DNA of 49,604 nucleotides, filler included, from Jimgerdemannia flammicorona (GCA_003990765.1; 2 parts of 2 records of this genome joined end to end with filler, not necessarily neighbours in it), one strand, 5' to 3'; positions 1 through 49,604 are shown, counted from the first letter of the whole stretch. Translations and numbers: made by a program. The notes: generated by a model not told the origin, from the letters alone.

Positions 1-99
1 TTTTTTTTTTATAGTCCCTTGGACTGCCCTTTATTACTGACATCTATAATTCTAACAATACAATGTCACCCCCACCCTCAACCAATGCCCTGTAGACCC

Positions 100-3738: not shown

Positions 3739-3811
3739 ATTGAATAAATGTTGCAATAGAGACCCCATTTTAGAATTCCATACTCATCTCATCTCCAGTC
3801 AGATCTAAGCA

Positions 3812-5677: not shown

Positions 5678-5758
5678 GTCAATAGTTGTCAGGTACCAAA
5701 AACATAGTAAAAAGTGTTGTCTGAGTCTTGTGTCACCCGAATGTTACCGGTGAAAGGA

Positions 5759-17304: not shown

Positions 17305-17349
<45 letters not shown>
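11660..17349 (+). mobile_element. L1/Tx1-clade LINE, full-length and degenerate (LINE-b)
   Basis: Poly(A) at 17308-17349. ~15-bp TSD agagactattctatt (11645-11659) / agaggctattctatt (17349-17363). ORF1 relic ~11790-13617. Confidence 0.92.
13634..17250 (+). pseudogene. LINE-b ORF2 (APE endonuclease + RT), many stops
   Basis: MMNSLYILSINVNRL..YDIVFLQDV, G(E)NFN, IDWVL, WSDH, SPGEDGL, GDPLSPLLY, GAFTDDIVV, YLSIWF, and a zf-RVT-like Cys/His segment near 16760-16830. The 3' boundary is approximate. Confidence 0.88.
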
Positions 17350-17353
<4 letters not shown>

Positions 17354-19357: not shown

Positions 19358-21423
19358 TGTAAGCGCACAACCTCCAAGCTATCAAAACTACACGTCACCC
19401 TCTGAACAAGCCACTGAAATCACACGCGACCTCTGAACAAATCTGGAAATCACCTGCTTGATCATAAAGCTGAGTCAAACCAAAGTTATAGTGCACAAAG
19501 CTGAGTCAATACAAAGTCACAGAACACAAGATTCATATAAATGGAATCTTACCAATCAGGACCAAATGTATGTATATATACAGAGCACCAAGACATGTTG
19601 AATCAGAGAACTAAAACAAACAACAACCACAACTTCCAAACACACAAACATGACCACCAAGATCTATACCCATATCTGTGCTGGCATTTGGAATGCCATT
19701 GTCAATCAAGCTACACCCCCTCTGCCCCTCATAAATATCTATAGCCTAGTACCCCTCTACTTCGTGAAAGCCCGATGGAATGCTCTGAATATGCTTAGCG
19801 AGGCCCACTGAATCAGATAAATCTCAAGCTACTACCAGATCAGCCGCCTCCTGGAAGATATGATCAAACACCACCATGATACAGACATCACTCAGATGTC
19901 TCAACACCAGAAGCTTATCGCCTGCAAACATTGAGAACTCTTCTACAAGTATAGCACCATTATTCCTCACCTCTGAGTTACCATAGCCAAAATGATTGCT
20001 ACCCTGTCCTATGGCCAAATTGATGACATGATACAAGAACTCAACCACAAGTACCTCGAGTACATCGAAACCACAGACAGAACCTTCCTACACCCCAATG
20101 ACCATATCCTGCAAATGCCCCAAGTTGGATATGCCATGAAGGACATCTATGATATAATCCACTTTGATGAAGATGAAGCAGAAGACAATGATCCCACTGA
20201 TGCTGACATGACCTCTAGCCAAGGATCTCTACCAACCCTGATCACACTGCCAACCTTGCTGATGAACTTACAACAATTCATAACAGCATACGAGACTTAT
20301 TGAGACAATGACCACTGATATGAATACTAATCTGCATTCACTCCTGATTACTTCAACTATAATAAAGAGACTGGAGAACACAACCTGTACCTCCAGACAA
20401 CTCTTGAGATTGAACCAACCACCCCACCACCTGAGTATGAGTGACATGAACCACAGCCACCAGCTTACTACAACTCCATGACTCATAGTGCTGTAACTTA
20501 CAGAAGGTATACAGACAGCAAATCTGATGAAAGTGAAGACAATGCACCCCTCCTTTATCCACCAACACCTTATCCAGCATATGAGACAGATAATGCTATT
20601 CTGTGGGATGGTGATGAAGTTCCAATATATTATTACCTTAGCAAACAAGGAGAAGTAATCCACGAACTACTCTTCCTAGATGACTACTTCATCAGAGATG
20701 ATGCAATCAATGGTGATGTCATCAAAGACTACCCAGATAGTGCCTAAATCCATAAATAGCCTAACAGTCATAGTATAGTTAGATTAGCCTTGTATGACAT
20801 GACTGTGAACTAACTCAGCAGTCAGACAATCTCTTGACATGTCAGATCACACTTGTACTATATGACTGCATTCCAACTCAGCAAGACACTTAGTGCTACA
20901 TCTATATTCAGCATAGTTCAGATAGCCCCTCACTAGTATAAATACCCCCTCCCCCAGACCTCAGAATCTGAGACTCAGACACACAAGAACATTTCTGAAT
21001 ACTTCTTCACAATATCCCTTCACATAACTACTCCTAGTATAGCAATATCATGAATAGCAAATAAACCTATTCAATAACCCACAAACCACCCTTAAGTAAA
21101 TCTGCTACCCATTAGGTCCCACTCCTAACTCCATCACGAAATTTCCTAATTAGGTATTGTCTGTAGCAATATGTCAATTCAACTAAGCTGGTCTTAGTTT
21201 CTTGAACTTCCTGAAATACGGAAAATCCTGAACATCCAGAACTAGTCCGAAAAAGGACTTTGGTTGAGATGTCAACCCAATCTTGAAATCAATAAGTGTA
21301 GAGGACATACTCTATATGAAATTGATCTTGACCATAAGAAAACGATCTTCCAGAATATCCAGAATCTCCAGAAAACCTTTCCAGAACTATGTAACAGTTA
21401 CTCTAAAAAGCAACCCCCTTACA
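19358..21423 (+). repeat. 5' LTR of element A (2066 bp)
   Basis: TGTAAG...CTTACA inverted termini. Boundaries match the TSD-flanked solo LTR at 8935-11093. TATA-like TATAAATA near 20937. Confidence 0.92.
19650..20747 (+). pseudogene. LTR (U3)-encoded accessory ORF, ~365 aa in consensus, unknown function
   Basis: ATG 19650 to TAA 20747 in one frame that joins ORF-track fragments 19992-20303 and 20478-20747. Several interrupting stops are sense codons in sister copy 1, e.g. CAC TGA ATC AGA TAA here versus CAC CGA ATT GGA CAA. Confidence 0.82.
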
Positions 21424-21426
21424 ACT

Positions 21427-21439
21427 TGGTAGCAGTGGT
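21427..21439 (+). promoter_or_regulatory. Primer-binding site, likely tRNA-iMet
   Basis: TGGTAGCAGTGGT begins 3 nt after the LTR end. TGGTAGC is complementary to the 3' end of eukaryotic initiator tRNA-Met. Confidence 0.7.
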
Positions 21440-23400: not shown

Positions 23401-23453
23401 CATGAGCAACTGTTACCACTCTGCACCACCTCAACAACCTGACCACCAGAACA

Positions 23454-23861
23454 CTGGACTTTATCAAGTTAAGACAAACTGCTAAGACCCCAACCAAAAG
23501 AAGCCAAAAAGCAACTGGATATGACCTGTATGTAGCTGAAGAAGCTACAGTTTCCAACCAAGAAGTCAAACAAGTCTATACAGGAATTAGCATTCAAATC
23601 CCTGAAGGATATGTTGGAAGAATATGCTGTCACAGCAGCCTAGCATTGAAAGGACTCTCAGTAGAAAGAGGAGTTATCGATGAAGATTACACAGGTAAAA
23701 TCATTGTCCTCATCCAAAACCATAGTTGGACACCCTTCAAGATCCCTATTGATTTCTGCATTGCCCAGATCCTATTCGAAAAAATCGAGTCAACCCTGAC
23801 AGTCAAGGAAGTCCCTGAACTACTGCCCACCATCCAAGGATCCAAAGGATTTGGCTCATCA
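23454..23861 (+). pseudogene. dut: dUTPase domain of element A polyprotein
   Basis: Motifs ATGYDL, (R>H)SSLA, GVIDEDYTG, IAQ and GSKGFGSS, in frame with the upstream zinc knuckle. Confidence 0.93.
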
Positions 23862-24080
23862 AACAAGGCCCTAACTCAACCTACTATGAGTAAAGAAGAA
23901 CAATTCTACAAAAAGATCGAAGATGGATATGTACCAAGTGGCTGATGCCCTCATGACATTGGAATGTACTCTTTCCAAATGATTGATAATTGCTTCTCTT
24001 GTATCAATGAACTGGCTCAAAGAAGAACCAACAGAAGGAAAGCTCCTACAACTGAAATCACCACTATTGGATTAGACAAA

Positions 24081-24753: not shown

Positions 24754-24853
24754 NNNNNNNNNNNNNNNNNNNNNNNNNNNNNNNNNNNNNNNNNNNNTTA
24801 ATTAATTAANNNNNNNNNNNNNNNNNNNNNNNNNNNNNNNNNNNNNNNNNNNN
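24754..24853. other. Assembly gap with artificial stop-codon linker (N44-TTAATTAATTAA-N44)
   Basis: Symmetric N runs around TTAATTAATTAA, exactly 100 bp in total. Adjacency of the two sides is not guaranteed. Confidence 0.95.
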
Positions 24854-28759: not shown

Positions 28760-30730
28760 ATTCACTCATTGAGAATAATAATTGAGATCTAGTCTCTCTT
28801 TTGTCAAATTGATAAATTAGAAGATCTCACTAGATATATAAGATTAAATATAATAGCAATAGTAATATAGAGTAAAATGAAGCTCAATTTATAGTAAAGG
28901 ATTATTTAGAAGAATATAGTATAGATTATAAAAAGATCTTCTCTCCAGTATTCAAGCTTACTTTGCTCAAGATACTTCTTATGATTAGAGACAAATACAA
29001 CTATGAAATCTATCAAATTGATATTAAGATAGCCTTCTTGATTGATAATATAGATATAGAGCTATATATACATCTGTCAACTATAAGGATACAAACTACA
29101 TAATGATGAGCAAAAAAAGCTTATATGCAAATTATATAAAGGTCTCTGTAGTATCAAATAAGCAGTAAGACTGTAGAACTGAAAAATCAACAAATACCTC
29201 TTAGATAACAGATTTTAGTATTATGAAGCTGATTCATATACATCAGACATATATTCTCAGAAATAGTATATATAGAAATTTGAGTAGACAATATTATTTT
29301 GATTAAGACAATAAGTGAGATTAATAATATAAAGATAACATTATATCAGAAATTCAAGATAATAGATATGGATAATATATTCTATCTTCTTGAAATATCA
29401 ATTATATATATATAATAGATATGAGTATGCTATATATCTATTACAAGCTACATATGTATATATATATAAACTATATTCAAATAATTCAGTATGAGTAAAT
29501 ATAAGCCTATCAGAACTCCTATAGAGATATCTATAAGGTTAAAGAAGTTCAATAATGATATATCCAAAGAATCAATAATATCTTCTATTAGTAAGCTGTG
29601 AGATATCTTATATATCTTATGCTTAAAATGAGATTCAACATATTATATATAGTCAACAAGATGGTACAGTACTTATTCTACTATAAAAATTTATATTAAA
29701 CAGCAATTAAGCACATTTTCTAGTATATTAAAGATATGGTATACTATATGCTTAGTTTGAATAATGATAATAAGAGACAAAGTGAGAGTACTATAAGATT
29801 ATCTAGTGTATATAATACTGATTGGGCTGGCAACCTGGATGACAGACAGTCTATGACTAGATATCTCTTAAAATTAGTAAAAATAGAGTTATTTCATGAT
29901 ATATATATGCAATCTTCAGTAATAATATCATCTATACAAGTAGGTATTATATATTATCTATAATAATAAAGGAAGCTATATAGCTTTTGAAACTACTAAA
30001 TAAATTGGAATTTTCTCAGAAATAGTACTCTATTCTACTCTAATAAGACAATCAATCTATAATTATTATAGTAAAGAATCCTATATCTTATATAAGAACA
30101 AAAAATATTGATATATAATATTATTTTATATAAAAATAGATGAAAAATTATACTATATATCTCAAATATATCTCAATAGAGTATATGATAATAGATTTAT
30201 TAACTAAAGCCCTTCTAAAGATAAAGTTTGACTTATATATACTAGAAATAGGACTTATAAACTACATATATACCAGTAAGTAGTAAATAATAGTGATAAC
30301 ATAATGATAATAGAAAGTTTTTCAGAGTACTAAAAGCCTCTCACTATATCTTATATATATCTATTAATATTACTTATATCTCTTCATTTGTGAATAGATC
30401 TAAATCTATATTACTAGTCTTCTACAATATTCTTGACCTTTTTATATACTTATAAATAGGAAATTTTGACCTTTTTCAGTTATCTAGATAGCATTTAGTT
30501 GGTTATATTTTAGTTTGGCCATATTTTAGTTCTTTTATTTATATATTCTAGAATATATCTTATAGAGCAGGAGTATAGAAATATCTTAGTTATATCAACT
30601 TGATATATAGTAGTATGGCTTAACTATATTATTACTATAAATATTATCAATATACATAAAAGTATGTAAGCTATCAATAAATAATTACTGTTTCCTTCCC
30701 TCTATCTGTCCTTATCTCAAGTATTCTACA
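28760..30730 (+). mobile_element. Decayed Ty1/copia 3' half: RT, RNase H, PPT and 157-bp LTR
   Basis: EYSIDYKKIFSPV..EIYQIDIKIAFL (copia RT), TDWAGNLDDRQS, RTKNIDI, DLLTKAL. PPT agagcaggag. LTR TATAGAA...TTCTACA at 30574-30730. Confidence 0.88.
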
Positions 30731-32663
30731 ATATATATAAGCTATAATAATTATAGAAGATTTAAAAATCATATTTATCTTTCTTAAAATCTATTAATAA
30801 CTTAATTTATTGATCTCTGATCTTCTATTGAGAAAGGAACTATATATATAATAATACTTATCAGATAGCTGCTACTATAGTTAGATATAACTGAGACTGA
30901 TACTAAAATAATATATATATGAGAATTTCAAAAATATAAATTGGCTATATATTTTTTAAACTTTAATGCAGACAAATTTGCTTATAAAAAAAAAATTATA
31001 TCTAATTTTTATTTATAAATATAAAGTTAAAAAAAAATTTACTTTTTTTTTTTTTTATACTTTTATTAATAAATATAAAATTTTTTACAGATAAATTTAT
31101 CTGCAAAAATATACAATCTATTGAATATAAATTTTAAGTAAAGTGCCTTTCAAATAAAGAACTGATTATATTATAATATAAGCTATCAAGAATTATAAAT
31201 TGAATTATTTAAATTAAACTCTTAATTTGATTTAGGTTAAATTAATTTAATTTATATAAAAGTACTAGTTTACTATACAATCTCTATAAAAGCTTCTGGG
31301 ATATATTACCAGTAATCTACTTATTAATTCACTTTGAATCATATAGTTGAGATTTATGTTCTAAATACTGATATCATATTTTATATATATATACATGTAT
31401 ATAGTAATACTTATAGTGGGCTTTTATATATAGAATTTATAATTTAAAAATTATTATTATCAGCAGTATTGTTATATTTTCTTAGTATATACTTAATGGT
31501 CACTATACTACTAAGAGTACCAATATTACTACTTTTCATTAGCTCAAAAGTATTTTACTAACTGGTTATAGATAATAGGTTACTAGCAGTAGGCCTACTC
31601 ATAGATCTCATACAGTGGGACTGACAGTAAATTTAATTGGACTTTTTAGCTGAAGATTGTTATTATTCTAATTAGATTTTATAGAATTGGAACTGAAACT
31701 GACAGTAACATTGTTACCATCTTCATATATTACTTAGATAAAGAAAAGACTACTATTATTATCTATTTCAGTAGTATTTATATTATTATATTTCTCTTTA
31801 TCACTCTCTTATTTGTTTCTATATTAATTGCTCTTCCTGTATCTATTTTCACCACTGCTTTCTATCTCATTCTCTCTATTATTATAATTACTTTACTTAT
31901 GTCTATACTTGCTAAAGTACCCAGAGTAGTTCTCAAACTTATCTAATTAGCTACTATTATATTAATTTTGAGTTTGAATTCATTCTTTTGGACTTTGATT
32001 TTATTGGTCATCATTATGAAAATTTTCCTAACATCTGCTCTAGGTGTAACTGCTCTTGGTATATTTGTATATATTTGGTATCTGTGTTAGCTATAGATAT
32101 ACCCAAATATCTGTAGATATATTTATATATATTTGAAAATTTATATTATATATATTTATATTATACTAAGATATCTAAATATAAATTATAATATAGCAGA
32201 TACATAACTGTATAAGTATGTCAGGTTTCTGTATCTTGAAAACTTAATCTTTTTTAACTCTGCAGAGTCCTCAGGATACAGGGGTAAGTGAGTTTGAACT
32301 ATATCTATCTATAGACTTACTAATTCTTTTGTTTTTTCTTTCTATTTCAATCAGAGGTTTTATTCACTCTAGATATTGGAGATATTTATACAAGTTTACT
32401 AGCTATAAGGTGGCTAAGTTATAACTATGTTTTTTATGAGTTATTCTTCATAAGTATTAATCTTTAATATCTATTAAATCTTTAACAATTGTCAAAACTT
32501 TAACATTTGTAAAATCTCAACATTTGTAAAGAGTTTAACATTTGTGAAATAACTGCTATTTGTAAGACTATACTATATTTGGGAATCAGATTTAAGTACT
32601 TTGATCAAATATCTATTCTCCTAATTTCTGTTACTAATTCAGATCAACTGTCATAACTTCCTT

Positions 32664-33190
32664 TTAAATAGGTAATTTATCTCTGAAACATTCTATTCAC
32701 TCAAACTCCTAAGCCTCCACAAGTTATATTTCCTTATACTGTACAATCTGTACCATTACATTCTCCCAGTAATGTCTCTTGATATGTCTAAAGTCTCCTG
32801 CAACTACTTCTCAGAAATGGGCTAGAGCTGACTCATCATCTTCAAACAACTTGTTAACTCACTTAGTAATTGTAATCTGAGTATAAGAGAGCTGGTACTC
32901 TCTAATCCAGTCTTCTTTTCCCATCTCTGGTCATCAGTTTAGTAGCTATCCCAACTTAAAGTATTCTTGAAAACTCAGTCCAGTTTTGATAGATCTTGAA
33001 ATATGAGATTTTTGAAAAGTCTGAACAATACTCTGGATACTGTCAAAGAATTCTTCCATAATTGGTAGCTCAGTAGTGCACCATTGTCATTTTATGGCTT
33101 GATGTATAGTACTGATGATCTTGAGGGTTGAGGCAGTACTCTGTTGATTAGCCATGATACTTCTTGAGTTAATGTCAGTGAATGATAGTA
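32664..33190 (-). pseudogene. Accessory ORF3 of element B, between integrase and PPT; homologous to the LTR-encoded ORFs
   Basis: One frame from ATG 33059: MEEFFDSIQ..QEYFKLG*LLN**PEMGKEDWIREYQLSYTQITITK*VNKLFEDDESALAHF*EVVAGDFRHIK. The stops are compatible with CGA/CAG/CAA C>T changes. The upstream limit is approximate. Confidence 0.65.
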
Positions 33191-35780
33191 GAGATGATTG
33201 TGCTTGAGAGTTTTTGTAGCCAAAAGGTGGTTCTTTTTATATCTTGCACAAGGTAAGGTTCTTTCTACTTAGGCTCCAGTTTTCATAACTATGAAGCTTC
33301 TTCTATATTCTGATATATCAGAACTTTGTCTCCTATCTTGATAATCTTCAGGGGCTTGTGAATCTTCTCTATATTATTCTATTATAGTACCTGTGCCTTG
33401 GTTATATAATCCTTGGCCTTCTTTCTGATTTGATATAGTTTCTATATTTCTGATTCTATACATTTCCATACAGTATCTCTATTAGATGATAATGTTTCTT
33501 GAGAACTTTCTTCTCCAAACAGTATCTCTCAAGAGGTGAAATGGGTACTTTGTATTGAAGAGCAGATAATACTATTGGCAGATAATGATCCCAGTTTTTG
33601 TAGTTATTGTAGATCTTGGTTATGACATTCTTGAGAGTCTTATTGGTCCTTTCTACTTGTCCATTTCTCTGAAAATGATAGGCTATAGTCTGAATGTACT
33701 GAATCTTGTACTTCTTGTAGAGAACCTCAAAGAACTGGTTCATGAATTCTATTCCTCTATCTGTAGTTACTTGTGCTGGAGTCTTGAATTAGCACATGAT
33801 TTCTTTTTAGAAGAAATCAGCAATTGACTGTATATTGGCTTCTTTGAGGGGTCCTGCCTCTATCTATTTTGTAAAAAGGTCTATAATGATGATGATATAT
33901 TGGTTGCTAGTCAAAGTCAAGAGTAGAGGGCCAATTATATTTATTGCAATATGTGCAAAGAGTACTAGTTCTATGTTTACTGATCCTGAGGTCTGATTTT
34001 ATTGGTCTTGTTTCTATTTCTGACATTTGTCACAGGTCTTGACAAATCATCTGATGTCTTTTTCTATTTCTGATCACTATATTGTTCTTCTTGCTTTATC
34101 ATATATATTTGTTCCTCTTAGATGGCCAAGTTCATATACTGATTTAATTGCTTGCTCCTTCTTATATTCAGATATAACTAGTAGTTTTTCTTTCTTTAGT
34201 ATTTCTTCATTAGTCTCAAATTATTTCTATATACTATTGATAATCATTTGTATCCATTCTTCCAAATATTGGGGTATCTTTTGCTGTCTCAGTAAGGTGA
34301 TAATTCTATAGTAGAGTTCCTTATTCATGATTGATTTGCTGATTGGGAGTTCTTTGGAGTATCTGTGAGAGGGCATCTGCATTGGCATTAGTTCTTTCAG
34401 AGTAGTATACAATGGTTATATCATAAGCTTGCAACTTCATAATCTATCTGGCATAGATTCCTTTGGATTACCTGGTGATCAGTAGTTAGGTGAGGGCTGA
34501 GTGGTCTATCTGAATAGTGAAGTATCTCCTTACAAGGTAGTAGTGAAACTTCTTTATAATTCAGATGACTGTATATTCCAACTTATAGGACTTATATTCT
34601 TTTTCAGCTGCTCAGATTTCTCAGCTGAGATATGCAATGATATATTCTACTTTATCTTTTTTTTGGGCCAGGATGGCTCCTAGTCTTTAGGCACTTGCAT
34701 CTGTCTATAGAATAAATTCTTGAGTCTAATCAGGTCTTCTAAGCTGTTGTCTGCTGGTCTATTGGAACTTGATATCCTTTTTGTTAAATTCATAGATTGG
34801 GCCTACAATATTAGAGAATTCTGTAATAATATGAGGTAAATCCCATGAAGGCTTTGGCTTTGGTAACAGTAGTGGACCTTGGGTATGCTACTACTGCTTG
34901 AATCTTGAGTGAGTTTGTGTATATTCTATTCTAGTTAATAATATGGCCAAGATAGGAAATCTTAATTTCTGTAAACTTGTACTTCTTGGGCTTAATGTAT
35001 AGACCATACTTCCTTAGCTTTTCTATCATCTGCTGGATATACTGCAGATGTTCTTTAGCTGTCTTTCTGTAGATAATAATATCATCCACATAAACTATCA
35101 TCTATCTTCCCATATCATAGCAGAAGATTTTGTTCATCATTTACTGAAAGCTTACTGATGTATTGCAAATTTCAAATAGTATTCACAGATAGACATAAGT
35201 TCCATCTGGGGTAATGAAGGCTGATTTTTTACTTGCTGCTTCAGTAAAGCCAATCTGGTAGAATCCTGAGTATAAATCCAAGATACTATTGTATTGTACT
35301 TCATCTTCCAGAGTTACAAGGATGTTACTAATGAGGGGTAGTGGTTGGTAATCCTTCTTTGTAGCCAGGTTGAGCTTTCTGTAATTGGTGCAGAGTCTTG
35401 AGACAAATTCTCCTGGTTTGCATTCTTTATTTAGGACCAATATGACTGGTGAAGCCCAAGGACTGCTGGCTTCTTTGATAATACTGACTTCTTCCATCTG
35501 CTTGATTTCTTCTCTGAGCCATTTATATTATGCTGGCAGAATTGGCCTTGCTTTTTGATAAATTGGTTCAGTGTCTCCTATATCTATATTATGCTAGTAG
35601 TATAGAGTCTTCTCTTGATATTCTTGAAGTCTGTTGCTAGAACATCCTTAAATTTATAGAGTATCTTCTTGAGTTTTTTCTTGAGTTGAAATTCATCTCC
35701 AATGGTATAGCTATGTTTGTTTGTGGTTTCTCCCTCTGTGATCTACTTCTGTGATCTTGGTGCTAGCAAATACTCCTCTT

Positions 35781-36200
35781 CTAGTAGATCTGAATTCTTT
35801 TCTTACTCCTTCTGTTTCCTCCAACTTTCTGACTTCTATGATCTTAGGCTGAAGAATTGGAAAGATCAACATCTGTATCAATCAGTCTTTCTTCTTGATT
35901 AGAAATGAAATCATGAAGTTGTGGTTTCTAGAAATGAGTAGTATTTCCTCAATATAGTCTAAATTGATGCCTTCTTCTTCAAAAGTAATTTTACTCTTGG
36001 CCAGACTACTTCTTGTCTTGAGGATCCCAACATGGTCCTTTGGAATGGTTATTTTCAGACCAGTTGCAAGCAGAGTAATTGTCTGAGGCTCTAGTACAGT
36101 TTTCTCTACTGTGGCAATATCTATTATAGCTGTATTCTCTAACTTATATTCTGATAGAACTGTATCAGAGTGGATTTTCTAAATCTTGACCTTGATTTCT
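35781..36200 (-). pseudogene. dut: dUTPase domain of element B, between protease and RT
   Basis: LATGLKITIPKDHVGILKTRSSLAK..GINLDY..LIQMLIFPI..RKEFRST are decayed dUTPase motifs (RSSLA, GxDxDY, RxGFGST). Confidence 0.85.
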
Positions 36201-39167
36201 TCTTTACCATCACTGTCCTCTAGAAGGGCTGGTGGTTTATCATCCTCTTTCTCATTCTTTTCTTGCCTTCCTTATTTTTCAACAGCCTTCTGTCTTCTTT
36301 CATAGTAGATTTACTTGATTCTGCTGATACACTAGTAGCAATAATCAACATGTTTCATATAGTACATCTTGATTCCATGAGGGCAGACTCCTTGTGGTAC
36401 ATATTCTTCAATGATCCTTATGCACTATTCTTCTTTACTAATCTATCTGACTTTCTTCTTCTTTTTCTGAGTAGTCACCATGTAGGCTTCTTCTTGCTTA
36501 CTTTCTTCTTTCTCCATTTCAGGTAGCACTCCTTTGTTGACATTGATAGAAATTCACATCTCCTAACCTTGGTAGATGATCTGTATCTTTCAGGCATTTA
36601 GGTCAATTATTGCCCTGGCTTTATAAAGCTACTGATTGCTGATGAGAATGTCATAGTTGGTAATATTGATTACAATTACATCTACTGAGATTGTTATCCC
36701 TCCAAACTTGATGGGAACATCTCAGATCTTTTCTAGAGATGTGTCTCTTATGCTATCTGCTGTGATAAATACTAATTTGATTGCTTCTTCAATCTCTCAA
36801 CCTAAGCAGTCTACTGCTTTCTTACTGAGGAGATATCTTTCTACTCCAGTATCAATGATGGCCTCAAAGATTCTATCTTTGATTTGACAGGTTATATAGA
36901 CAGATGTCTTGCAATTATCTTTACTCTCTTCTCCTGAGTCTTCTTGAACATTGTTGGTCTTAGTTATCTTCCATTCTTGTTCTTTGGTTATCTCCACAAG
37001 TTTATATCTTATTTACTATCTGAATATGGATATTTCTGCCAGCTGGCCAAAAGTTACATTTATCTTTTATTGATTGAGGTCCTTGAAGATATCATACTTA
37101 AAAGTCTGGTTTTGTAAAGCTTCTTCTCTTTTTCTCCTTTACTAGCTGAGATAGTTTCTCAAATGATATCTTAAACAGTCTGTTCTGGTTCCTTATCTTG
37201 ATCTGTTTCTTCACCTTAGCTTTCTGTAGTAGTTTTCATCTGTTTTTCTAAAGAGTTCTTCTTGAGTCTCCCTGGCAGTCTCTTGTAGGATTCCTTTTAG
37301 ACATCTTTCTTTATAGTCTGTATGGAGTAAGCCTTCTATTCTTCTTCATCTAATTCTCTGATTTCTTTGAAAGTAATAGTATTGACCTATTCCTTATTCC
37401 TTATAGCTTGGTCTCACTCATACATTCATATAAGTAGTGGTCTTCTTCTCTACAAGTATAGCAGATATCTCTCTTCTTGCCTGAGGTGGTAGCAAACTTC
37501 TGAACTGAGCAGTAGTCTCTTCTTCTAATTTTCTTTACCATATCTCTGAGATAGGTAGTCATGTCAGCAAACTTCTTAGTAAGTTCCTGTATAGGGTTGC
37601 TGTTTCTCTATTACTCTGTAGCTCTTATCTGAGGTGTATTTTGATTGATCACTGTGATAGAAATCATACTGGTTGTCTTGGGTGCTTTGATTCTGACTCT
37701 AGTGACTCTTTCTATTATGTGGTCTTGTAGATGTCTGGCTATCCAGTATCACTGGACATAGGTGACCTTTTGTACTAGATCCAGATCTACTGATAATGAG
37801 TAGATGGCCAGGGCTATCTCTAATTGAACTTCTTTTATAAAGGTTGTCTTGGCTACTTAATCTTAGATAGTAGTAGTATAATCTGTAAGAATTATCTGAT
37901 ATCAGATTCTGGTGTCAAATGTGTTTAGATCTTTGCTTATTCCTTGATATATTATATTGAGCTAATCCTTCAGGACTTACTTGATCTTGTCTGTATAATA
38001 GGTGGTTCAGAGCCAGGCCTTCTGTACTGCTAGCATGATATTGTCATCATTTCTCACATATATAGGTTGTAGCTATAAATGCTGCTCTTACTGGTCCTCA
38101 GAGACTGAAGGACATGAGAGCTACTTGCTGTCTTATTGTCAGAGTCCTTACTACAGCATATTACTTAAAGTCATCAATAAATATGATGATCAATTTATCT
38201 GAGGTATATTTATGAAATACTGGTAGTCTTATATCCATCTTGTCTAAATGTCTTGGTTTGATTTGAGTGGTTATTTGAGTAGTAGTGGTCATTTGTTTAT
38301 TCAGCTTCAAAGTGAGGGATTTATCTTGATTATCAGCTAATAGGCACTAAGTTGTAATAAAGCAGACATATAACTATATAAGTATGTTGGGTTTCTGTAT
38401 CTTGAAAACTAGATCTTATTTGACTCTGCAGAGTCCTCAGAATATAGAGGTGGGTGAGTTTGAAGTATATCTGCCTGCAGGCTTATGCTTTATCTTTACT
38501 TTAAACTATTTTGATCTGAGGATTTATTCACTCTAGATACTGGAGATATTTATACAAGTTTGCTAGATATAAGGTGGCTAAGTTATGACTATGTTTTCTA
38601 TGCATTATTCTTTACAAGTGTTAATTCTTGACAACTGTTAAATTTTTGACAATTATCAAAACTTTAATATCTGTAAAATCTCAACATTTGTAAAAAGTTT
38701 AATGTTTGTGAAATTACTGCTATTTGTAAGGCTATACTATATTTGGGAATTAGATTCAGGTACTATGATCAAATATCTATTCTGCTGATTCATATTACTA
38801 ATTTAGATCAATTATTACAATATCTAAATATATATCTTGACCATGATAATTATATTTTCCAAGGGGATGAAATTCTCAGTACTTATATTTAATACAATAC
38901 CTGTATCATTACAGATTTTATTTACTGCAACAGTGACCTTAGAATGATGACATCAGTACAGAAGACAGTCTTTCCTTACAAGCTATCAGATTGGAGTACA
39001 AGAAGATTATATGGCATATGAGATGAGCAATGATGACCAACTGTGAGTCATTGTGATGACAGTATAAGCATCCTGAGGAATATAAAAGAAGGATCAAGGA
39101 ACCACAGTAGCAGCAACCAACAAGACTCACTAATCCCAAAATAGCTCAAAGACTTACCACAAACAAA

Positions 39168-40019
39168 ATGCCTGCTGCTCACCAAACCTCAAGGTTAAGG
39201 AACCACTAAGGCACCTTGGTCAAAGAAAGGATGTTCCAAGACATCAGAAGAGCTATGAGGACCCACACAAGAAGGACTCCTAGTGTCAACCTGAGTACTG
39301 GTGACCCTTATCACTATATTCTCTACTGCTATGAAATGGAAACAAGGATCACCATTGCTACTGAATGCCTCCAAATGTGGCAGGAGTATGAAATAGGAAA
39401 CCTCCTCTGCCAGGAGTTCCCACAGGCCAGCACTCAAGAGCTACAAGATACCACTCCTATGGATATATACGAAATAAGGACAGCTAAGAAGATCCATCAG
39501 ATCTTCAGGCATACACCATGGTCAATCCCCAACTTGGAGTATATTAGAGTCTCAGATTTCAGAGACCTGTCATCCCACCATATTAATGCACTAGAAGCCA
39601 GGGTGGCTACAGAAGCCCAGTCCACTATCACCCTCAATAGTGATGAAGTAGAAGACTTCTGGCATCCCATTCTCTAGGACAATCCAGATCAATTCCTGCA
39701 AGGATTGATCTCAGTATTCCAAGGCCCAAGCATCCAGGTTAGACCTCTCCAATACCCCACATTTGTTCTCTATTTTGTGGAAGAGAACCTCATAGACTAG
39801 AGAGCTCTAGATCTCCTTGTTCCTGATTTCCCCACCACCAAATGTGATGACATCATCAGCAATGACATCATCTCATGTGACATGTGTGAGATACATGACA
39901 AAGCATGCAAAGTATATGAAACACATGACCTACACAATGAGTTTGCAGACCTTATCTCCTTCAAAGACATCCTGACCTCTGATGATGAAGCCTCTATGGT
40001 CCTGAACATTCTGCTCTAA
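39168..40019 (+). pseudogene. LTR-encoded accessory ORF of family E (284 codons, 3 internal stops)
   Basis: ATG 39168 to TAA 40019 in the frame of ORF-track 39216-39677. The YEIGNLL...TAKKIHQIF...IPNL core aligns with the family A LTR ORF and element B ORF3. Confidence 0.72.
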
Positions 40020-40031
40020 GTCTCTTGGTTA

Positions 40032-40190
40032 TACTGAATAATGTCAGCACCAGCATTTGATATAATACTGAATAATGCCAGCACTGGCATTTGATGTAAT
40101 ACTGAATAATACCAGCACCAGCATTTGATGTAATACTGAATAATGCCAGCACTGGTATTCTGATATAACACTGAATTATACCAGCATCCT
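40032..40190 (+). repeat. 34-bp tandem array (~4.6 units) inside LTR E
   Basis: Unit TACTGAATAATRCCAGCACYRGCATTTGATRTAA at 40032, 40066, 40100, 40134 and ~40169. Confidence 0.9.
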
Positions 40191-41133
40191 GAACCTGTAC
40201 AACTATCAGTGCCAACTCTGGAACTTAGCAGTTTTTCCTGTTCTGGCATTTTATTTTAGTTATTGGAATTTATATTTAGCTTTATATCTTAGCAACCATT
40301 GAATTATATTTTGTATAAATATCCCTCTTATTTTCTCTGAAATAAAGTCAGTTCTGGTTTCACTTATACACTCTTCCTTGCAAGCAATCTAAGAGATAAC
40401 AAGACAGTTAAAGATAAGAAGTTTGAGGACTATAAGATCTTGGAAAGGCACTCCAATAAGAACTTGCTTATAATAAATTTGAGTTAGTCTAAGAGATATA
40501 TCTTGAAGAGAATCTGGCATATTTGAAGGACTCAGTGACCACTATGTGACATTACTTAAAATTAAAAAATATATACATATCTGTCACTATGATGATTAAG
40601 AAGAAAGGAATCAAATCATAAGTATTTCTATTAATTTTGAGAGTATTGTTTATACTGCTCTTAGTTTCAAATAAAGGAATAAAGTAAATTTGATAATATA
40701 ATTTCAATAATAGAAATAATCTCAAATATATTTCTATACCTCTATACTAATACTGCAGTCTCTTTATCTCAGGAGATCTGTCTTATAAAATATTATATAT
40801 ATATAAGAGAAAATATAGCATCTTTATGTTTTAATTTAAATAGCAGCTGAAGTTGTTCAATACTAATATCAGAAATTTCTTCTTTTTTCTTCTTAATCTG
40901 AGTATTATAATGAGCAATTTATTTATAATAGGAATACTTGTAAAATGCTAGATTACACTAATATATATTATAAATATTGTAATAAACAGAAAAAGCAATT
41001 TATTTATAATATAAATTATATACTTTTAGATATTATAATAACATATAAATGATGTAAAATAAATTGGCATAAAGTTATATAGATATATATCAACTGGTAA
41101 TTCCAACACTCTCACTCAAGAAGATATATATAC

Positions 41134-44100
41134 TGTAATGTTCCTGGCTCAATAGAGGCAAATTACAAGGTTGAGGGTTGATGTAGTTTAGCTTGAGCCC
41201 CTAGTTACTTTGCCAAAAAGTAATAAAATGTTCTAAGATTCCTGAGGTCCTTGGTGTTTAGTGGTATAATAGTCAAAGCTGGATATCTGCAAGTGATTTA
41301 TATGTTGATTTCCTAATTGGGATGGTTCTCTGGGTATAGCAGTGATTTGTGTGTGAATGGGTTTCCTTCTTAGGTCAACTAGGAATTAGTAGAATTTCAT
41401 GTATAGCACAATGATCTCTGCATGTAATGGTCTGGCAATTTAGCAATTCTCCTTCTTAGGTTGCAGTGATCTCTGTGTGACAATCTCCATGTAGCATGAC
41501 AATTTCCAAAAGTATGTGATTTCTGGTAGATAACTCGATTCAGCTTACTAGAAATAGAGGATGGCATGGGTTCTTCTTACTGGAAATAATACTGGTGGTA
41601 GATTACTCAATAACTCAGACTCACTGGGGACAATGGATAACTCAGATTGGTATAGATAACTCAGATAGCATGGATTCTTCTAAATCAGGCTCTTCTGGGA
41701 ATACAGATAACTTGATAATGGCAGATGATGTGGATACTGTGGAATTGGCAGGCTTCTGGAAAATAACTTGGGTGGTGTGGATTCATCTGAATCGGTGGCT
41801 TCAACTGGGAATACTACTGGCATGGATTCTTTCTGAATCAGCAGCTTTAACTGGGAAACAGCAGTGAAGTTCTTTCTTGAACTTGGGTGGCAAATCTTCA
41901 GGCTTATCTGGCAAGTGAACCAAAAATGGACTCATTCTTTATATCAGAAAGTGGACTGGAGTGGAAGAGAAGGGAACCAAGCTCACAACTTCTTGACAGT
42001 GGCTCATTGACAGGTATATCTCCTAAGTATTGCAATCCTTCCTAGATCAAGTGGCTTTTAGCAGGCATTTCTCCTAAGTGTACCAGACAATTGACTTTTG
42101 CTTTGGTTTGTGTTCAACTTTTGGACTGAGGTTTATTCACTCTTATCTCTGGGGTAATTTATACAAGTTGGTTGCTATCTGGTTACTATGTGGCTAATAT
42201 AGGTTTGCTACTTATGACAGGTGGACAGAGTCTGTATGGTGTACAGGACCTGAATAGTGTACAGAGTCTGTATAGTGTACAGAGTCTGTATAGGTAAACA
42301 GACCCTTTATGGTATATTTGGCTAATTATACAGTTTCTACAGCCAGTTACTATGCTGTGTATTCACATCATCTTGGCTAATTGTTCGTATTATCTGGCTA
42401 AGATATAATTCAGGTAGTATATCTTGGTTTGTTATATCAGCCCCCACTGAAGGATAGTCTGTCCCAGACTGTTCTTTAGTCATCATCCCAATAAGCATAG
42501 GCTGCTTCTGCATCTATGCCTGTTCCATCATCTTCATTATCTGTATTAGGGCTGAAGCTCAACTAGTAGAGAGTCTCCAGGCTCTGAGGTTGAGGTGTGG
42601 CCATCTGGCTCCAGTAGAGGGGTCTCAGAGATAATTGATCCCTCTTCTTCCTGTAGGGTCTAGGGCTTCTATGAAGTTGGTGGTATCTTTGGCCCATCCT
42701 TGGCGGGTTGCATGTCTGATGAGAGCTAGAATGTCTTCTCCTAAATTATAGATCTTGAGGGTCCTTTTTTCTGGCTTTTTAGTCTGACTTTTTCGGATCT
42801 GGCTTTGGTTATCTCCTTTCTTCAAAGTGTGAACTGCAACATCATGACTGAGATGGATATTCTGATACCTGCAGTCTCAGCAGTCTGGGTGTCTTCCAAG
42901 GTTACAATATTCCATTACTTTAAAATGATGTTCCCAGTTATTGATCTTTTGTTGTTTTGGGAATTAGTACCCATCTTGGTCATAAGTGGGTGGAAGAGTA
43001 GACAAGGGATATATTTCAGTCTGAGTGAAGAAACCTTGTCCCCTGAATTGGCTTTACAACTTGGTGGTAACTTCTTGGAAGATAGTTGACTGTACAAGTA
43101 TGTTCAGGAGTTCTGGTCTCTAGGGTCTCTATCTCTTCTGTTGGTCCAATAAATGGCACTGATAGCAGTAGTCTTAGGGAGAGTGGAAGATCATTTGGTG
43201 TGGACATCTTTCTAACCAAAAAGTCTTTTCTTGGTGAGTCTCTTTCTTTGAGATAATGGTGATTATGCTGGGTTCTTCTTCCATATTCCAGGGGTCATTA
43301 TCTTCAGGTGGTGTCCAGTGAGAATTATCCCAGAGAATGAGTTCAGGGACCTCTTCTTCTTCAGGTGCTTCTTGTTCAGGGACTTCTTGGTCAGAAGTTT
43401 CTTCTTCCTCAGATGATTCTTGACCCCAAATTACTTATACTTCTGCCACTTCGGTTGCAGTTGTTTCTGGAACATGTCTGCATTTTTTTTTCTTCCTTTG
43501 GCATTCTGGGCAGGCTGTGCCAGGCGATTTCCTTGTTTCCATGATCTTGGAGGAATGCTCAGAACACTTGTGTCTCTTGAGGCAGATAGGACATCCTTTG
43601 GCTTCTCCTGCAATAGCTCCAATGGTGATAGGGATAATGTTTTTGGCCCACACATTGTCTTCTGGTCTGTCATCTACCAGGTTAATTTGGGGATTGAGTC
43701 TGGGATCATTTCTGTCTTCAGATTCTTCTTCCTCTTCTGTAGTAGACTCTTCACTGCTGGCATATTCTTCCTAAATAGTGACCTTCTTTTTCTTCTTCGA
43801 TTGCTCATAGCTGGTTATCTTAACTCTGTACTTCTTGCCTCTATAGTCAAACTTGAATACCTGTTGATCAATATCAATAACTGCATTCATTTCCTTCATC
43901 CAGTTGGTACCAAGAATCATGTCTTAAGTGACAGCTTTGGTGACAACAGCTTTTGGGATGGAGAACTGAATGTGTCCAAGGGAGATAGTGATATTTCATA
44001 CTTCTCCAAGAGGTTGAGTTCAGGCTCCATCTGCTACTATGATGCTAAGATTGGATGATCCATCAATAGGCCATTAGAGGGTGTCCAGGAATAATTTGGC

Positions 44101-47100
44101 AATGACACAGATAGCTACTCCAGTGTCTATGAGGATTTTCACCTTTTGTCCTCCAATATCTCTATGTAGGTAGGTGCTGACATGTCTTTCCACTGCTTGG
44201 ACAGAGATAGAAACTGGTTCTTGCTGTGGGATTGGAACTCGGCCAGTACTAGACCTGGTTGTTCTCAGCAATTTGTTTTGGACTCCAGCTGGTGTCAGTT
44301 ACAGGAACTGCAGGAGAGGGACTTCCATATTGGCCTCTTGGATCTTCTGCCAGACTTCATTATAGATGTCTCTAGGCATGGTCTTTGGGGTGTACTTTTT
44401 CTTGGGCTTTGGGGCAATAGGTTTCTGTTCTTCTTGTTCTATTTCTTCATCTTCTGGTGGTAACTCATTTGTCTCAGGGACAAAAGGTGAGGGGGTTCAG
44501 AGAGGTGTTTCTACTTATTCTTCCTCATGTTTTTCATCTTCCTCTTGGATAGTTCTTCTGCTGACGTTTCTGGATGGCCTTCCTACAGGTCTCTTCCTTT
44601 TCTCTGCTGGGTAAACTGTTTTCCAGATAGTAACCTTGGTAGGATACAAGTCTAGGTCACTGTAGTCTTCACTGTTGCTTGCTTCTTCAAAATCGTCATT
44701 CAGTCTTCTTATACTGAGTGTCATTCCTTCAGTTTGGTGGTTCTGAGTCCCTTCAGTCACTTCTTTTGATGTCACATTTGGTAATATAGTGTCCAAATTA
44801 TCCACAGTAGAAGCATTGGACTTGAGCTATATCTTGGGCAGGATATCTTCTCTCTTCTTACTGATAACTCCTGTTATCTCTGGGTGGATAACCTTGGCTC
44901 CTCTGTGGTGGGTATCCTCCATTGTCTTGGTAGCTCCAGTTTTTATGTGTAGTGAGTTTTTCAATCTGTCCAACCAATCAGTCCAACTTGGAGCTGAGGT
45001 CTTGGATTTTACTTCTGTCCTTCTTTCCTTTCTTAGCTGGCCTTCTTTCTTTAGATCTTTCTTGTCCTTAAAGGAGTCCTTGTAGGGCTTTGACCAGGAT
45101 GTCTTCTTTATCTTCTTTCTTGTCATGATCACTCTAAGTAGTTCCTTGTCTGACATCAAAGAATCCTTGGGCTATATCTACTTGCTCTTTGGACCTTCTG
45201 ATGCCTAAGGTGCAGACATAGGGCAATGTTTGGGGGAATTCCATTCATGAAGATCATTGGACCAATGATGTCCTGGTTGGTGGCATTGAACCCGGCAGTA
45301 TGCATTCTTTTCTGAATTCTTGTGAAGAAGGCTCTGGGTGATTCTCCAAGATTCATCTTCATTCCTATGATGGATTCTTGAGCCTTGTAGTGGGTTTCAT
45401 TTCCTACATACTTTTCAATGAGCCAGTGGACCATGGCCTCATATTTTAGCTCATAAGACATTGCTGCTTGTATCTGTCTTACCAGTTCTGAATCTGGATT
45501 ATTTACTGTTCAATGGAAAATTCCTCTGGCTGGTTCTCTGAGCTGGGCCTTGTAGATAGCAATTTTTCTTTTATCTGAGAGATTTCTCAGGGCTGTAATT
45601 CCTTCAATTCCATTAAGGAATTCTCTGGGGTCTTCTTCCAGGTATCCTGCAAAGGTTGGCAATGATCATCACTTTCTTCTGATTCTGGTTCAAGTTCAGA
45701 TTCTGATTCTGATTCACTTTCTGAACTGTTACTGGAGATGGGGGTGCTTGGGTATCTTGGGGATGGTGTTCTGGACCTTGGACAAAGTGGAATAAGCCTA
45801 GGTATTCTTGTAGGAGCTACTTCTAACTCTGCAAGAGGTTGTGGTAAAGGTTCTATTGGTGAGATTGATGGGACTAGTATGGGGCATCTGGCTTTAAGGT
45901 CTCGGGTTTGTGTGATCAGATCTTCTAGTTCTTGTGCAAGTTCTTTGAAATCTCTAGCAGGGCTGCCTATATTGTCTGGTTGATCTGGTTGAGGATTTTG
46001 GGCTGTACTGCCTTCTGGTTGGGATCCTTCTGATGCTGGATAGTTGGTGAGTCTTGATGTAATTACTTCTCTTCCTGTCCAGATGCTGGTAATAACTGAT
46101 TCTCCTGTAGTGGCAGAGGTTGGTGTTGTATCAAATGTATCCAGTTTGACTGTGGGTTCTTGTGAGCTGAAAAGTCACATTGATTTTGAAATCTTTCCAG
46201 TTGAGTTCCCAAATGTAATGTGCCTGGCTCAATGGAGGCAAATTACAAGGTTGGGGGTTGATGTAGTTTTGCTTGAGCTTCCAGTTACTTTGTCAAAAAG
46301 TAATAAAATGTTCTAAGATTCCTGAGGTTCTTAGTGTTTAGTGGTATAATAGTTAAAGCTGAATATCTGTGAGTAATTTGTATGTGGATTTCCTAATTGG
46401 GATGTTCTCTGTGTGTAGTGGCAATTTGTGTGTGAATGGGTTTCCTTCTTGGGTCAACTAGGAATTGTTAGAATTTTATGTATAGTGCAATAATCTCTCC
46501 ATGTGATGGTCTGGCAATTTAGCAGTTCTCCTTCTTGGGTGGCAGTGATCTCTATATGATAATCTCTATGTAGCATGATAATTTTCAAAAGTATGCGATT
46601 TCTGGTAGATAACTTGATTCAGCTCACTGGGAATAGAGGATGGTATGAGTTCTTCTTACTGGGAATAATACCAGTGGTAGATTACTCAATAACTCAGGCT
46701 CACTGGGGACAATAGATAACTCGGATTGGTATAGATAACTTGGATGGCATGGATTCTTCTAAATTGGGCTCTTCTGGGAATATGGATAACTTGATAATGG
46801 TAGATGATATGGATTCTCTGGAATCAGCAGGCTTCTGGAAAATAACTCAGGTAGTGCAGGTTTATCTGAATTGGTAGCTTCAACTGGGAATACTACTGGC
46901 ACAGATTCTTCCTAAATCAGCAGCTTCAACTGAGAAATGGTGGTGAAGTTCTTCCTTGAACTTGAGCAGCAAATCTTCAGACTTATCTGGCAAGCAAACC
47001 AAAAATGGACTCATTCTTTGTATTGGAAAGTGGACTGAAGTAGAAGAGAAGAGAACCAAGCTCACAACTTCTTGGCAGTGGCTCATTGGCAGGCATATCT

Positions 47101-47524
47101 CCTAAGTATTGCAATCCTTCCTGGATCAAGTGGCTTTTGGTAGACATTTCTCCTAAGTGTACCAGATAATCGACTTTTGCTTTGGTTTATATTCAACTTT
47201 CAGACTGAGGTTTATTCACTCTTATCTCTGGGGTAATTTATACAAGTTGGTTGCTATCTGGTTACTATGTAGCTAACTATAGGTTTACTACTTATGGCAG
47301 ATATACAGAGTTTGTACAGTGTACAGGACCTGTACAGTATATAGAGTCTGTACAGTTTACAGAGTCTGTATAGGTAAACAGACCCTTTAAGTATATTTGG
47401 CTAATTATACAGTTTCTGCAGCAATGGTTGCCAGTTACTATGCTGTGTGTTCATGTCATCTTGGCTAATTGTTCGTGTCATCTGGCTAAGGTATAAATCA
47501 GATGGTATATCTTGGTTTGTTACA
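41134..47524 (-). mobile_element. Non-autonomous gypsy-like LTR element C (gag + protease, no RT/RNaseH/IN)
   Basis: Paired ~1.3-kb LTRs (41134-42436, 46214-47524) with 4-bp TSD ATAC. Decayed tRNA-Pro-like PBS (TGGGAACTCAACTGG) and PPT (AGTGGGGG). Gag PTFAGYLEEDPREFL ~45660 and LGESPRAFFTRI; protease VKILIDTGVAICVI ~44130. The 3.8-kb interior has no RT motifs. Confidence 0.88.
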
Positions 47525-48420: not shown

Positions 48421-48754
48421 GTCTTGAATCCTTTTCGTGGCGGCGGTCTTATAATGTTTTCTTTCTTTCCATGGCAAGAGAAAATTCTTTAACTCAAACC
48501 TCGAGCGATCGTTGCTCTAGTTATCTTGTTCTCAGACTTTATCTGGTCTCTTGGAGGCAGTGATTTCTTTGTAAACTAGAACTGACTGAGGTTTATTCAC
48601 TCTAAGAATATGGGTTATTTATACAAGTTTGCTAGCTATGGGGGGGGGCGCAACTAAGGCTAACATATACTACGTTGTGGTGAACTTTGCTATGCTATTG
48701 GCTTGCACGATGCGTGGTGCAGACTATTTGTTTACTATAGATTGGGTTGTAGGG

Positions 48755-49100
48755 GATAGTAACGCTGGATTCGGATGAGCAGGCAGGAGTGCTGACTGTT
48801 GCCAGAAATGGTTGTGAAGGGTAGCAATGCTGAAAATGGGTGTTGCTGACTTGCTGACAAGAATGCTGAAAATGGTGGTACTGGATAGCAACACTGGATT
48901 TGGACTTGCTGACAAAACGCTGAAAACGGTTGTGCTGGGTAGCAACGCTGGATTCGGATGGGCTGACATGATACGATGGTTGTTGCCAGAAGTGGTTGTG
49001 GAGGGTGGCAACGCTGAATTCGGACCTGCTGACAAAAATGCTGAAAATGGTAGTACTGGGTAGCAATGCTGAATTTGGACTTGCTGACAAAACGCTGAGT
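48755..49100 (+). repeat. Degenerate tandem array (~55-60 bp units) in LTR D
   Basis: Recurring TAGCAAC/TGCTG.ATT.GGA..TGCTGACA..AATGCTGAAAATGG modules. Confidence 0.8.
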
Positions 49101-49604
49101 TCTCACGGCTAATGGGCAGTACTTCTAGAGGGAATAGTACCCTGTGGCAGGCAAATCTTGCTGGGTTGTGATTTCTTCTTCATCTTATCTCTCCTCAAAG
49201 GGGGGAAGCGCCAGCCAAGAGGTGAGGGGGTAGAAAAGGGGCCGGTCATCTTCAACAACATTCTCCAACCCTTGAACAGCTTGAATGCGGACAGAGGACT
49301 GGTAGACTCTCTGTTGCTCCTCTTCTTCTTCTGAAGGCTCGTCAGTTTCAGTGTCAGAGGGGGTTTCCTCAGGGGCAGGGTCTTGGAGTTCTTGGGCCTC
49401 CTCTTCAAAGACAGGAACTTCTTGGGCTTCTTCTTGATTTGGTTCCCAAATGATGAGGTGTGAATTGTGGCTGACAGGGTGGTGGGTGGTTGGGGTAGCT
49501 CCAATGGGTGTCTCTATAGTGATGGGCGGTCCTTCAAATATCTCCATAAGACTCATTAGGTGACCTTGATGGTTGTCTCGGAGTGGGGTGGTGTGGAAAC
49601 CTGG

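Follow-up and report, generated by a model that had tools for sequence, protein, structure and literature searches.

Accessory genes distinguish complex retroviruses from simple retrotransposons. In mouse mammary tumour virus (MMTV) and in the human and simian immunodeficiency viruses (HIV and SIV) the accessory genes sag and nef, respectively, lie in or overlap the U3 region of the 3' long terminal repeat (LTR), and foamy viruses carry in tas a 3'-proximal regulatory gene with a second, internal promoter besides that of the LTR. The brtn gene of a Botrytis retrotransposon is antisense. We know of few accessory genes outside animals and plants, and of hardly any inside an LTR. Here we analyse a 49,604-nucleotide stretch of DNA from Jimgerdemannia flammicorona (GCA_003990765.1; two parts of two records joined end to end with filler, not necessarily neighbours in the genome), called the window below, which self-comparison reveals to be a nest of decayed retroelements. 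Three of its LTR families, A, B and E, come with an open reading frame (ORF) that an original prediction, made by eye from the sequence, had assigned to a single accessory-protein family. The three peptides quoted there are all present in their frames: E on the plus strand (39168-40016 plus the stop), B on the minus strand, and A in sense orientation in each of the three copies of its LTR.

Taken as a whole, the reading that we regard as probable is that these ORFs are one gene family lying on both sides of the boundary between the polypurine tract (PPT) and the LTR. It would be a lineage-specific accessory gene of dUTPase-carrying Ty3/gypsy-type LTR retrotransposons, carried as a cassette of a TATA box, a leader of about 70-80 nt and an ORF of 150-365 codons. 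In element B this cassette would occupy the 3' end of the interior, with its TATA box in the integrase coding region and its ORF ending just ahead of the PPT; in E (two loci), and probably in A (three LTR copies), the same cassette would lie in the U3 region of the LTR. The simplest history would be a movement of the PPT/LTR boundary across the cassette. Every E and A LTR, solo LTRs included, would then be a complete transcription unit with its own TATA box, ORF and LTR polyadenylation signal, and the ORF would also be present at the 3' end of the full-length RNA.

The E and B genes are very probably homologous. In Smith-Waterman alignments with stops read as X, the E-B score gave z = 5.3 and was reached by none of 300 shuffles. 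Profile comparison by hhalign aligned the two over 68 columns in the register of the original prediction (P 2.5e-4), and an earlier pair of profiles scored 32.0, against 12.9 ± 2.6 (maximum 19.6) for column shuffles, none of 100 of which reached that score. Hidden Markov models (HMMs) were scanned against the window in six frames (666 chunks), with 30 shuffled six-frame windows as the null. The E HMM gave the database proteins P0009 and P0014, which are relatives of the B ORF, 15.7 and 13.7 bits (E 3e-4 and 1e-3 at Z = 666), where the best null scores were 8.5 bits in the shuffled windows and 4.6 bits in the reversed window. Left to itself, MAFFT set E and B in the same register, with nearly invariant E, Y, L, A, K, H, F, V and D residues. 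A tblastx search of the window with the E region and with the B ORF (ORF3) found no cross-family match at E <= 1e-3.

Judged from their sequences, each of the three ORFs is, or was, a real gene. A word-indexed search with E returned P0001-P0004 at 75-88% identity, an exhaustive profile search recovered P0005-P0008, and a cluster look-up added P0011 and P0012. These E-type relatives, 28-80% identical to P0002, all come from short metagenome contigs, where their ORFs are intact and 200-342 aa long. Among 1.84 billion representatives the exhaustive search found only five clusters, including the divergent P0005, P0007 and P0008, which makes it doubtful that the gene is old and conserved, as had been proposed. 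For B, ORF3 read with X at its stops found P0009 and P0010, whose cluster mates P0013 (139 aa) and P0014 (153 aa) have the same MANQ start. All four are intact, 107-153 aa long, and 63-66% identical in the search or 70-72% identical to the window copy in alignments. Because the intact P0013 and P0014 share its start, ORF3 is a maintained ORF, and its start and end can be fixed from the same two proteins: the ATG is at 33155 and the stop at 32699-32697. The original prediction had the place right and the bounds (33190-32664) too wide.

The gene family is unannotated. None of the nine proteins or pieces scanned had an above-threshold match in Pfam-A (three drew sub-threshold rows), P0002, P0007, P0012 and P0008 had 0 Pfam families at E <= 1, and the E profile matched none of the PDB sequences at E <= 10, in agreement with the expectation that this was not a known domain; the B profile had two PDB matches, at E 0.08-0.3. 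A literature search found no paper on an ORF of an LTR retrotransposon within the LTR, nor any describing this gene family. In the ESM Atlas all scores for P0002 were 0.83 or lower and nothing credible was named, while the top rows for P0014, at 0.95, were unnamed clusters. Four clusters or names were common to the two proteins, namely an unnamed 148-aa cluster (97 members), DUF6192, Closter_coat and 'Translation repressor', the last being two clusters of different size. This overlap may be a hint that P0002 and P0014 look alike to the ESM model.

Family A, too, probably belongs to the gene family. In the whole-window scan the A ORFs were the best non-E matches and fell in the expected register. 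With the E HMM they scored 13.2 and 11.9 bits (null maximum 7.9), and with a joint E+B profile the three copies scored 13.8, 11.7 and 10.6 bits (null maximum 9.2). The E-A comparison by hhalign scored 26.6 (P 0.008), against 14.0 ± 2.6 (maximum 23.1) for 100 column shuffles, none of which reached it. The same frame has been kept in all three A LTR copies, with 5-8 stops as against 16-41 in the other two sense frames, and the stops fall at mostly different codons among the copies. No A-B relationship was detected by hhalign, which gave P 0.087-0.13 and another register. Since the E-B and E-A profiles exceed their nulls and A-B does not, the predicted family appears confirmed for E and B, and probable for A.

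The placement of the E ORF depends on the ends of its LTR, which were set with contigs of four public sequencing runs aligned on 32000-41200. Five X2 contigs diverge right before 38929, at a purine tract followed by TGT, and eight X1 contigs run past 40551 into ACTTGGTGCCCATTGG, a primer-binding site (PBS) of the same type as that of B; contig depth stays high from 38754 to 40595 and is close to 0 from 40596 to 40902. From these loose ends the E LTR is 38926-40551 (TG...CA), with both 5' and 3' LTR contexts elsewhere, and it contains the whole E ORF. Every A, B and E LTR carries the 11-mer GTATAAATAYC in sense orientation, with one mismatch at the second E-family locus, E2; nine matches were found where 2.8 were expected, and none of 100 shuffles reached nine. 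An AATAAA lies downstream of the 11-mer. We take the 11-mer as the LTR promoter because the short, ORF-less B LTR has it, and the A, E and E2 ORFs would lie in U3 since they are upstream of this TATA and AATAAA.

A separate TATA box precedes the ORF itself. This box and its spacing to the ATG are common to B, E and L001, a 1.5-kb metagenome contig that carries an E-type ORF (P0012) and was the one locus confirmed among 134 pattern matches in a metagenome scan with the E alignment. The box of E, TATAAAAG, is also found in L001, as is the 5' untranslated region of the E ORF, AGACTTACCACAAACAAA. From this TATA to the ATG there are 77-79 nt in B, 79 nt in E and 70 nt in A. B and E further have in common their PBS type and the 5' end of the LTR (TGTAACAG-like). 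The distance from the stop to the LTR TATA is 305 nt in B (41 in the interior and 264 in U3) and 293 nt in E. In B the stop lies 31 nt ahead of the PPT, AAAAGGAAG, and 42 nt ahead of the LTR start; in E the first copy of T(G/A)TAATAC lies 42 nt past the stop, at the same offset. In L001 the ORF is followed by GGAGGGAGGAT (11 nt of purines) and then by TGTAATAAG. These distances, the terminal words and L001 are consistent with a passage of the PPT/LTR boundary over the cassette and suggestive of it. The original prediction had the gene absorbed into U3 by an upstream shift of the boundary; the location in U3 remains the likely one, and the shift is plausible and gains support, though it is unproven, and its direction, into or out of the LTR, is polarised by no tree. 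At the DNA level the LTR parts of the three families and of L001 resembled one another only in the short TATA and terminal words, the candidate remnants of an integrase C-terminus upstream of the E, A and L001 ORFs were unconvincing (the best were matched by 10/200 and 4/200 shuffles), and an upstream-in-downstream repeat in the window E LTR was not significant (score 47 against a null of 41 ± 6).

Several observations weigh against a single boundary-crossing family. L001 has a 28-nt repeat at 169-197, upstream of the TATA of its ORF, and at 1480-1508, about 217 nt past the TGTAATAAG word (24/28 identical; score reached by 0/200 shuffles). It could be an upstream promoter element present at both places, but head and tail could also have come together by a tandem or wrap-around assembly. 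The window holds no second E LTR copy with an interior, and no complete E or A element (two LTRs around gag-pol). The decayed ORF3 of the window scores only E 4.6 with the E HMM, and its frame is no more open than the alternatives (8 stops against 6 and 13). The hhalign probability is only 43% for E-B and 4.8% for E-A, and the profiles are shallow (Neff, the effective number of sequences, 1.3-2.1). The motif [YF]x[ILV]Gx[LI]L, used as a regular expression, had five six-frame matches, one of them unrelated (11148), and missed the third A copy; so loose a motif is weak evidence by itself. Add to these an identity of 15-24% and the multiple-testing cost of a six-frame search by eye, and it might be argued that all three resemblances are chance, between unrelated lineage-specific ORFs whose A+C-rich sense strands bias their amino acids. 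We consider this improbable, as the E-B profile and HMM scores are far above composition-preserving nulls, the upstream TATA with its spacing and leader recurs in B, E and L001, and PBS type and LTR terminus are held in common by B and E. A narrower alternative, that only B and E share the gene and that the A ORF is unrelated, independently acquired and E-like by composition and a few helix-forming residues, deserves more weight and is still rather unlikely. It would account for the missing A-B link and the low hhalign probability of E-A, and the pairwise Smith-Waterman z is about 0 for A-E (about 0.5 for A-B). With a third E profile the scores of the A copies are only 9.8 and 6.3 bits, where the null reaches up to 8.5, so that the E-A score is profile-dependent, and the A HMM matches P0007 (E 0.22) and P0014 (E 0.48) in the right register but amid noise. 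A 127-aa piece of A, searched in the 'longer' lengths of the database only, gave 49 candidates, none at E <= 0.01. A also differs from B in its PBS and LTR start, and the two dUTPases are only 30% identical. Two of the three A LTR copies flank a poly(A)-tailed long interspersed nuclear element (LINE), not gag-pol, which leaves copy A2 to establish the LTR status of A. Yet the A ORFs are the top non-E matches, in the same register, two profiles place them clearly above all 30 shuffled nulls, and both the layout of the cassette and the LTR TATA word downstream of it recur in A.

What the protein of this family might do can be approached from its composition and predicted structure. As had been noted, it does not look env-like: in seven proteins the maximum Kyte-Doolittle mean over 19 residues is 0.17-1.22, with no transmembrane-like segment. 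The E and A proteins are acidic (pI 4.5-4.9). Their C-terminal 60 residues carry a net charge of -6 to -16, which in five of the six long forms is between -11 and -16; the B protein is shorter and consists of little more than the shared helical core. AlphaFold2 models of P0002 and P0014 (mean predicted local distance difference test score 45 and 62, the core of the latter 80-86) consist of helices throughout, and in the aligned core six of these follow one another in an identical order; since the P0014 model was built from a mixed E+B alignment, this agreement is not independent, which counts against giving it weight. Fold searches reached at best Z 3.3 with the P0002 model and 3.5 with the P0014 model, and Foldseek at best E 1.4; the rows for the P0002 model include many winged-helix proteins, at noise level, and neither model could be assigned to a fold. 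For the helix-turn-helix (HTH) fold that the original prediction had raised as speculative, Pfam gave one row, HTH_Tnp_Mu_2, which at 14.1 bits (E 0.052) stayed below the cut-off of 20.5 and lay outside the shared core. The gene resembles a retroviral regulatory gene in that a soluble helical domain with an acidic tail would be produced from a separately promoted 3' or U3 cassette, and by this analogy a nuclear regulator acting to switch on the promoters of the element itself is possible, though short of probable. The further proposal is that each E or A LTR, solo LTRs left behind by recombination included, is a free-standing gene for a trans-acting regulator, so that LTR number across the genome would set the dose of activator, and that B and L001 keep the ancestral state with the cassette upstream of the PPT, which would let the passage of the boundary over a gene be seen directly. 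It is distinctly speculative and we hold it to be unlikely.

Other roles and origins can be weighed on the same features. A protein acting on RNA (Rev-like export or packaging) or in host defence (a suppressor of RNA silencing or of repeat-induced mutation) is nearly as possible as a promoter activator, without being likely in itself. In some E members the N-terminus is rich in arginine (the first 45 residues of P0002 carry a net charge of +8), the E proteins end in leucine-rich words, and the decay of the A LTR copies is of the kind left by repeat-induced point mutation (RIP). Among these copies (8934-10975, 17366-19354 and 19358-21423) 420 of the 464 changes are transitions, C>T and G>A account for 269 of the differences, and CpA context is enriched among the C-to-T changes (147/268, against a background of 37%). 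The window copies are full of such RIP-like, CpA-biased transitions; the host therefore attacks its repeats, and a counter-measure would pay. Against such a role, the basic N-terminus is not conserved, being net -1 in P0012, P0008 and P0014, and no RNA-binding family was matched in the Pfam and PDB profile searches. That the ORF is merely a captured fragment of a host gene, passively carried, seems to us very improbable. LTR elements are known to capture extra ORFs, and additional ORFs are reported in bdelloid rotifer LTR retrotransposons (PMC5408684). The five clusters found by the exhaustive search, however, are all short 'hypothetical' metagenome ORFs with no longer cellular protein among them, and the cassette has kept its own TATA box in three lineages. 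An accessory gene carried as a cassette by related elements remains the reading that we prefer.

The features on which this account draws are collected in the table below. The domain maps were drawn with Pfam from stop-free ORF pieces (132 pieces, then 145). Element B has, on one strand, the Ty3/gypsy (Metaviridae) order of gag with a CCHC knuckle, protease, reverse transcriptase (RT) and integrase, between direct LTRs, the 5' one followed by a PBS and the 3' one preceded by a PPT. Pfam identified zf-CCHC, dUTPase and RT on its minus strand (RVT_1 matches at 35186-35527 and 34934-35101) and, among the ORF pieces scanned, left the integrase without a match; a DTG protease motif was recognised by reading, and so were the core of the integrase and the C-terminal KLEPKxKEPY...LKKYHG. 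The positions given in the original prediction, B between integrase and PPT and A and E inside long LTRs, were found as described, and so were the A and E LTR lengths of 2.1 and 1.6 kb; for B, where 468 bp had been given, the LTRs measured about 472-474 bp. One X3 contig fuses both B LTRs (32455 to 38716), skipping 6260 nt with 36 other letters between, which suggests that elsewhere B exists as a solo LTR or in a rearranged form.

Table. Features of the A, B and E elements and of other repeats in the window (whole-window positions)
Feature	Position	Strand	Remarks
Element B 3' LTR, ~474 bp	32182-32655	-	blastn self-match; ends read from sequence
Element B 5' LTR	38348-38819	-	self-match; LTR TATA 38555-38545
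LTR TATA of B 3' LTR, GTATAAATATC	32391-32381	-	
Element B PPT, AAAAGGAAG	32657-32665	-	one base ahead of LTR start; read from sequence
PBS-like ACTTAGTGCCTATTAG after B 5' LTR	38352-38337	-	
Element B gag-pol, heavily decayed	33156-38347	-	Pfam and three-frame reading
Element B zf-CCHC	37404-37607	-	
Element B dUTPase	35885-36178	-	
Element B RT	34934-35527	-	
Element B integrase	core ~34000-33300; end ~33140	-	frame differs from ORF3
Element B ORF3	32697-33155	-	152 codons + stop; 8 in-frame stops (decayed copy)
TATA box of ORF3, TATAAAAAG	33233-33241	-	77-79 nt upstream of ATG; inside integrase C-terminal coding region
Family A LTR, copy A2, 2066 bp	19358-21423	+	TGTAAG to TTACA
PBS TGGTAGCAGTGG after A2 LTR	21427-21438	+	
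dUTPase in A2 interior	23406-23942	+	Pfam E 3.6e-30; same strand as A2 LTR
Family A LTR ORF, copy A2	19650-20747	+	365 codons + stop; 8 in-frame stops
TATA of A2 ORF, TATATATA	19573-19580	+	70 nt ahead of ATG
A2 LTR TATA	20936-20946	+	
A2 LTR AATAAA	21060-21065	+	
Family A ORF, second copy	9621-10715	-	in LTR 8924-10978; 5 in-frame stops
Family A ORF, third copy	18049-19140	-	in LTR 17366-19354; 7 in-frame stops; C-terminus diverges
Family E LTR, 1626 bp	38926-40551	+	TGCAAC to GTGACA; contig loose ends
TATA box of E ORF, TATAAAAG	39081-39088	+	79 nt ahead of ATG
Family E LTR ORF	39168-40019	+	283 codons + stop; 3 in-frame stops
68-bp tandem repeats with T(G/A)TAATAC	40028-40186	+	after E stop
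E LTR promoter TATA, GTATAAATATC	40313-40323	+	
E LTR AATAAA	40341-40346	+	with TATA marks U3/R region downstream of ORF
Second E-family ORF, E2, P0008-like	49185-49604	-	C-terminal 139 codons stop-free; cut by window end
E2 LTR TATA-like GTATAAATAAC	48624-48614	-	one mismatch to TATA 11-mer
2.1-kb repeat A, three copies	8924-10978; 17366-19354; 19355-21433	-; -; +	self-comparison
0.47-kb LTR pair B	32182-32647; 38348-38811		self-comparison; 84% identical (blastn self-match)
1.3-kb LTR pair D	41134-42434; 46214-47522		self-comparison

The dUTPase domain is placed in pol between protease and RT, both in element B (E 5.6e-07) and in the A2 interior. The latter is interrupted by 44-N runs, which are assembly gaps, at 24754-24797 and 24810-24853, so that the 3' half of A2 and its 3' LTR fall outside the window. 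Two A LTR copies stand head to head at their 5' ends (junction 19354/19355), and in the second copy a 118-bp stretch at the start of the LTR is duplicated in tandem (10858-11093). The E2 ORF matches the E-family HMM at E 5e-20 (4e-24 with another E profile). It is apparently undecayed, in a region of 48% G+C unlike the decayed copies, and downstream of it (48614-49098) there are tandem repeats of about 180 bp (48745-49098) and a TATA/AATAAA pair as in the E LTR.

Among the other retroelements in the window are two related LINE-like non-LTR elements, at 1-6000 (minus strand) and 12370-17350 (plus strand), whose sense strand is strongly G-rich; tblastx aligns them collinearly at 30-48% identity, and RVT_1 was matched at 1562-1840 (minus). 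The second lies between two A LTR copies and ends in a poly(A) run (17331-17349). Element D (41134-47522) has 1.3-kb LTRs that are 89% identical and start with TGTAAT, and a 3.8-kb interior in which no ORF piece of at least 50 aa had a Pfam match; it may be a non-autonomous LTR element. A fragment of a Ty1/copia-type RT (RVT_2, E 5e-11) is found at 28876-29100 (plus), in very AT-rich surroundings (21-33% G+C at 28-32 kb).

If the boundary-crossing reading is true, related elements with one gene family on either side of their PPT/LTR boundary would be a concrete example of how a U3 gene of the sag or nef type originates. If, in addition, the protein regulates LTR promoters, solo LTRs would be expression units and not inert scars. 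Annotation is affected as well, since ORFs of this kind are hidden by LTR finders and repeat maskers and receive the label 'hypothetical' from gene callers.

Among described systems the brtn gene, an additional gene of the Boty/BcGypsy1 retrotransposon of Botrytis cinerea, is comparable as an extra unannotated ORF in a fungal Ty3/gypsy element (bioRxiv 10.1101/2021.04.13.439636). The window ORFs are on the sense strand, unlike brtn in the antisense orientation given above, and the likeness is one of description. The gene of element B, between integrase and PPT, occupies the position of the env of errantiviruses and of the ORF3s of bdelloid rotifer elements. It differs in having no signal-peptide or transmembrane-like segment and no Pfam family, and in E and A the gene lies inside the LTR. 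With foamy virus tas the cassette would have in common a 3'-proximal gene with a second promoter inside the element and, in its acidic C-terminal tail, a feature of transactivators; there is no homology, the E and A cassette is wholly within the LTR, and transactivation is here only inferred. The comparison with MMTV sag and HIV nef is of another kind. No similarity of sequence or fold to them was found, the host lies outside the vertebrates, the elements lack an env, and the ORF would be expressed from its own TATA box instead of by splicing. As in those viruses, however, an accessory ORF on the sense strand lies downstream of pol, is not needed for the chemistry of reverse transcription and, in E and A, would lie inside U3 and so be duplicated in both LTRs.

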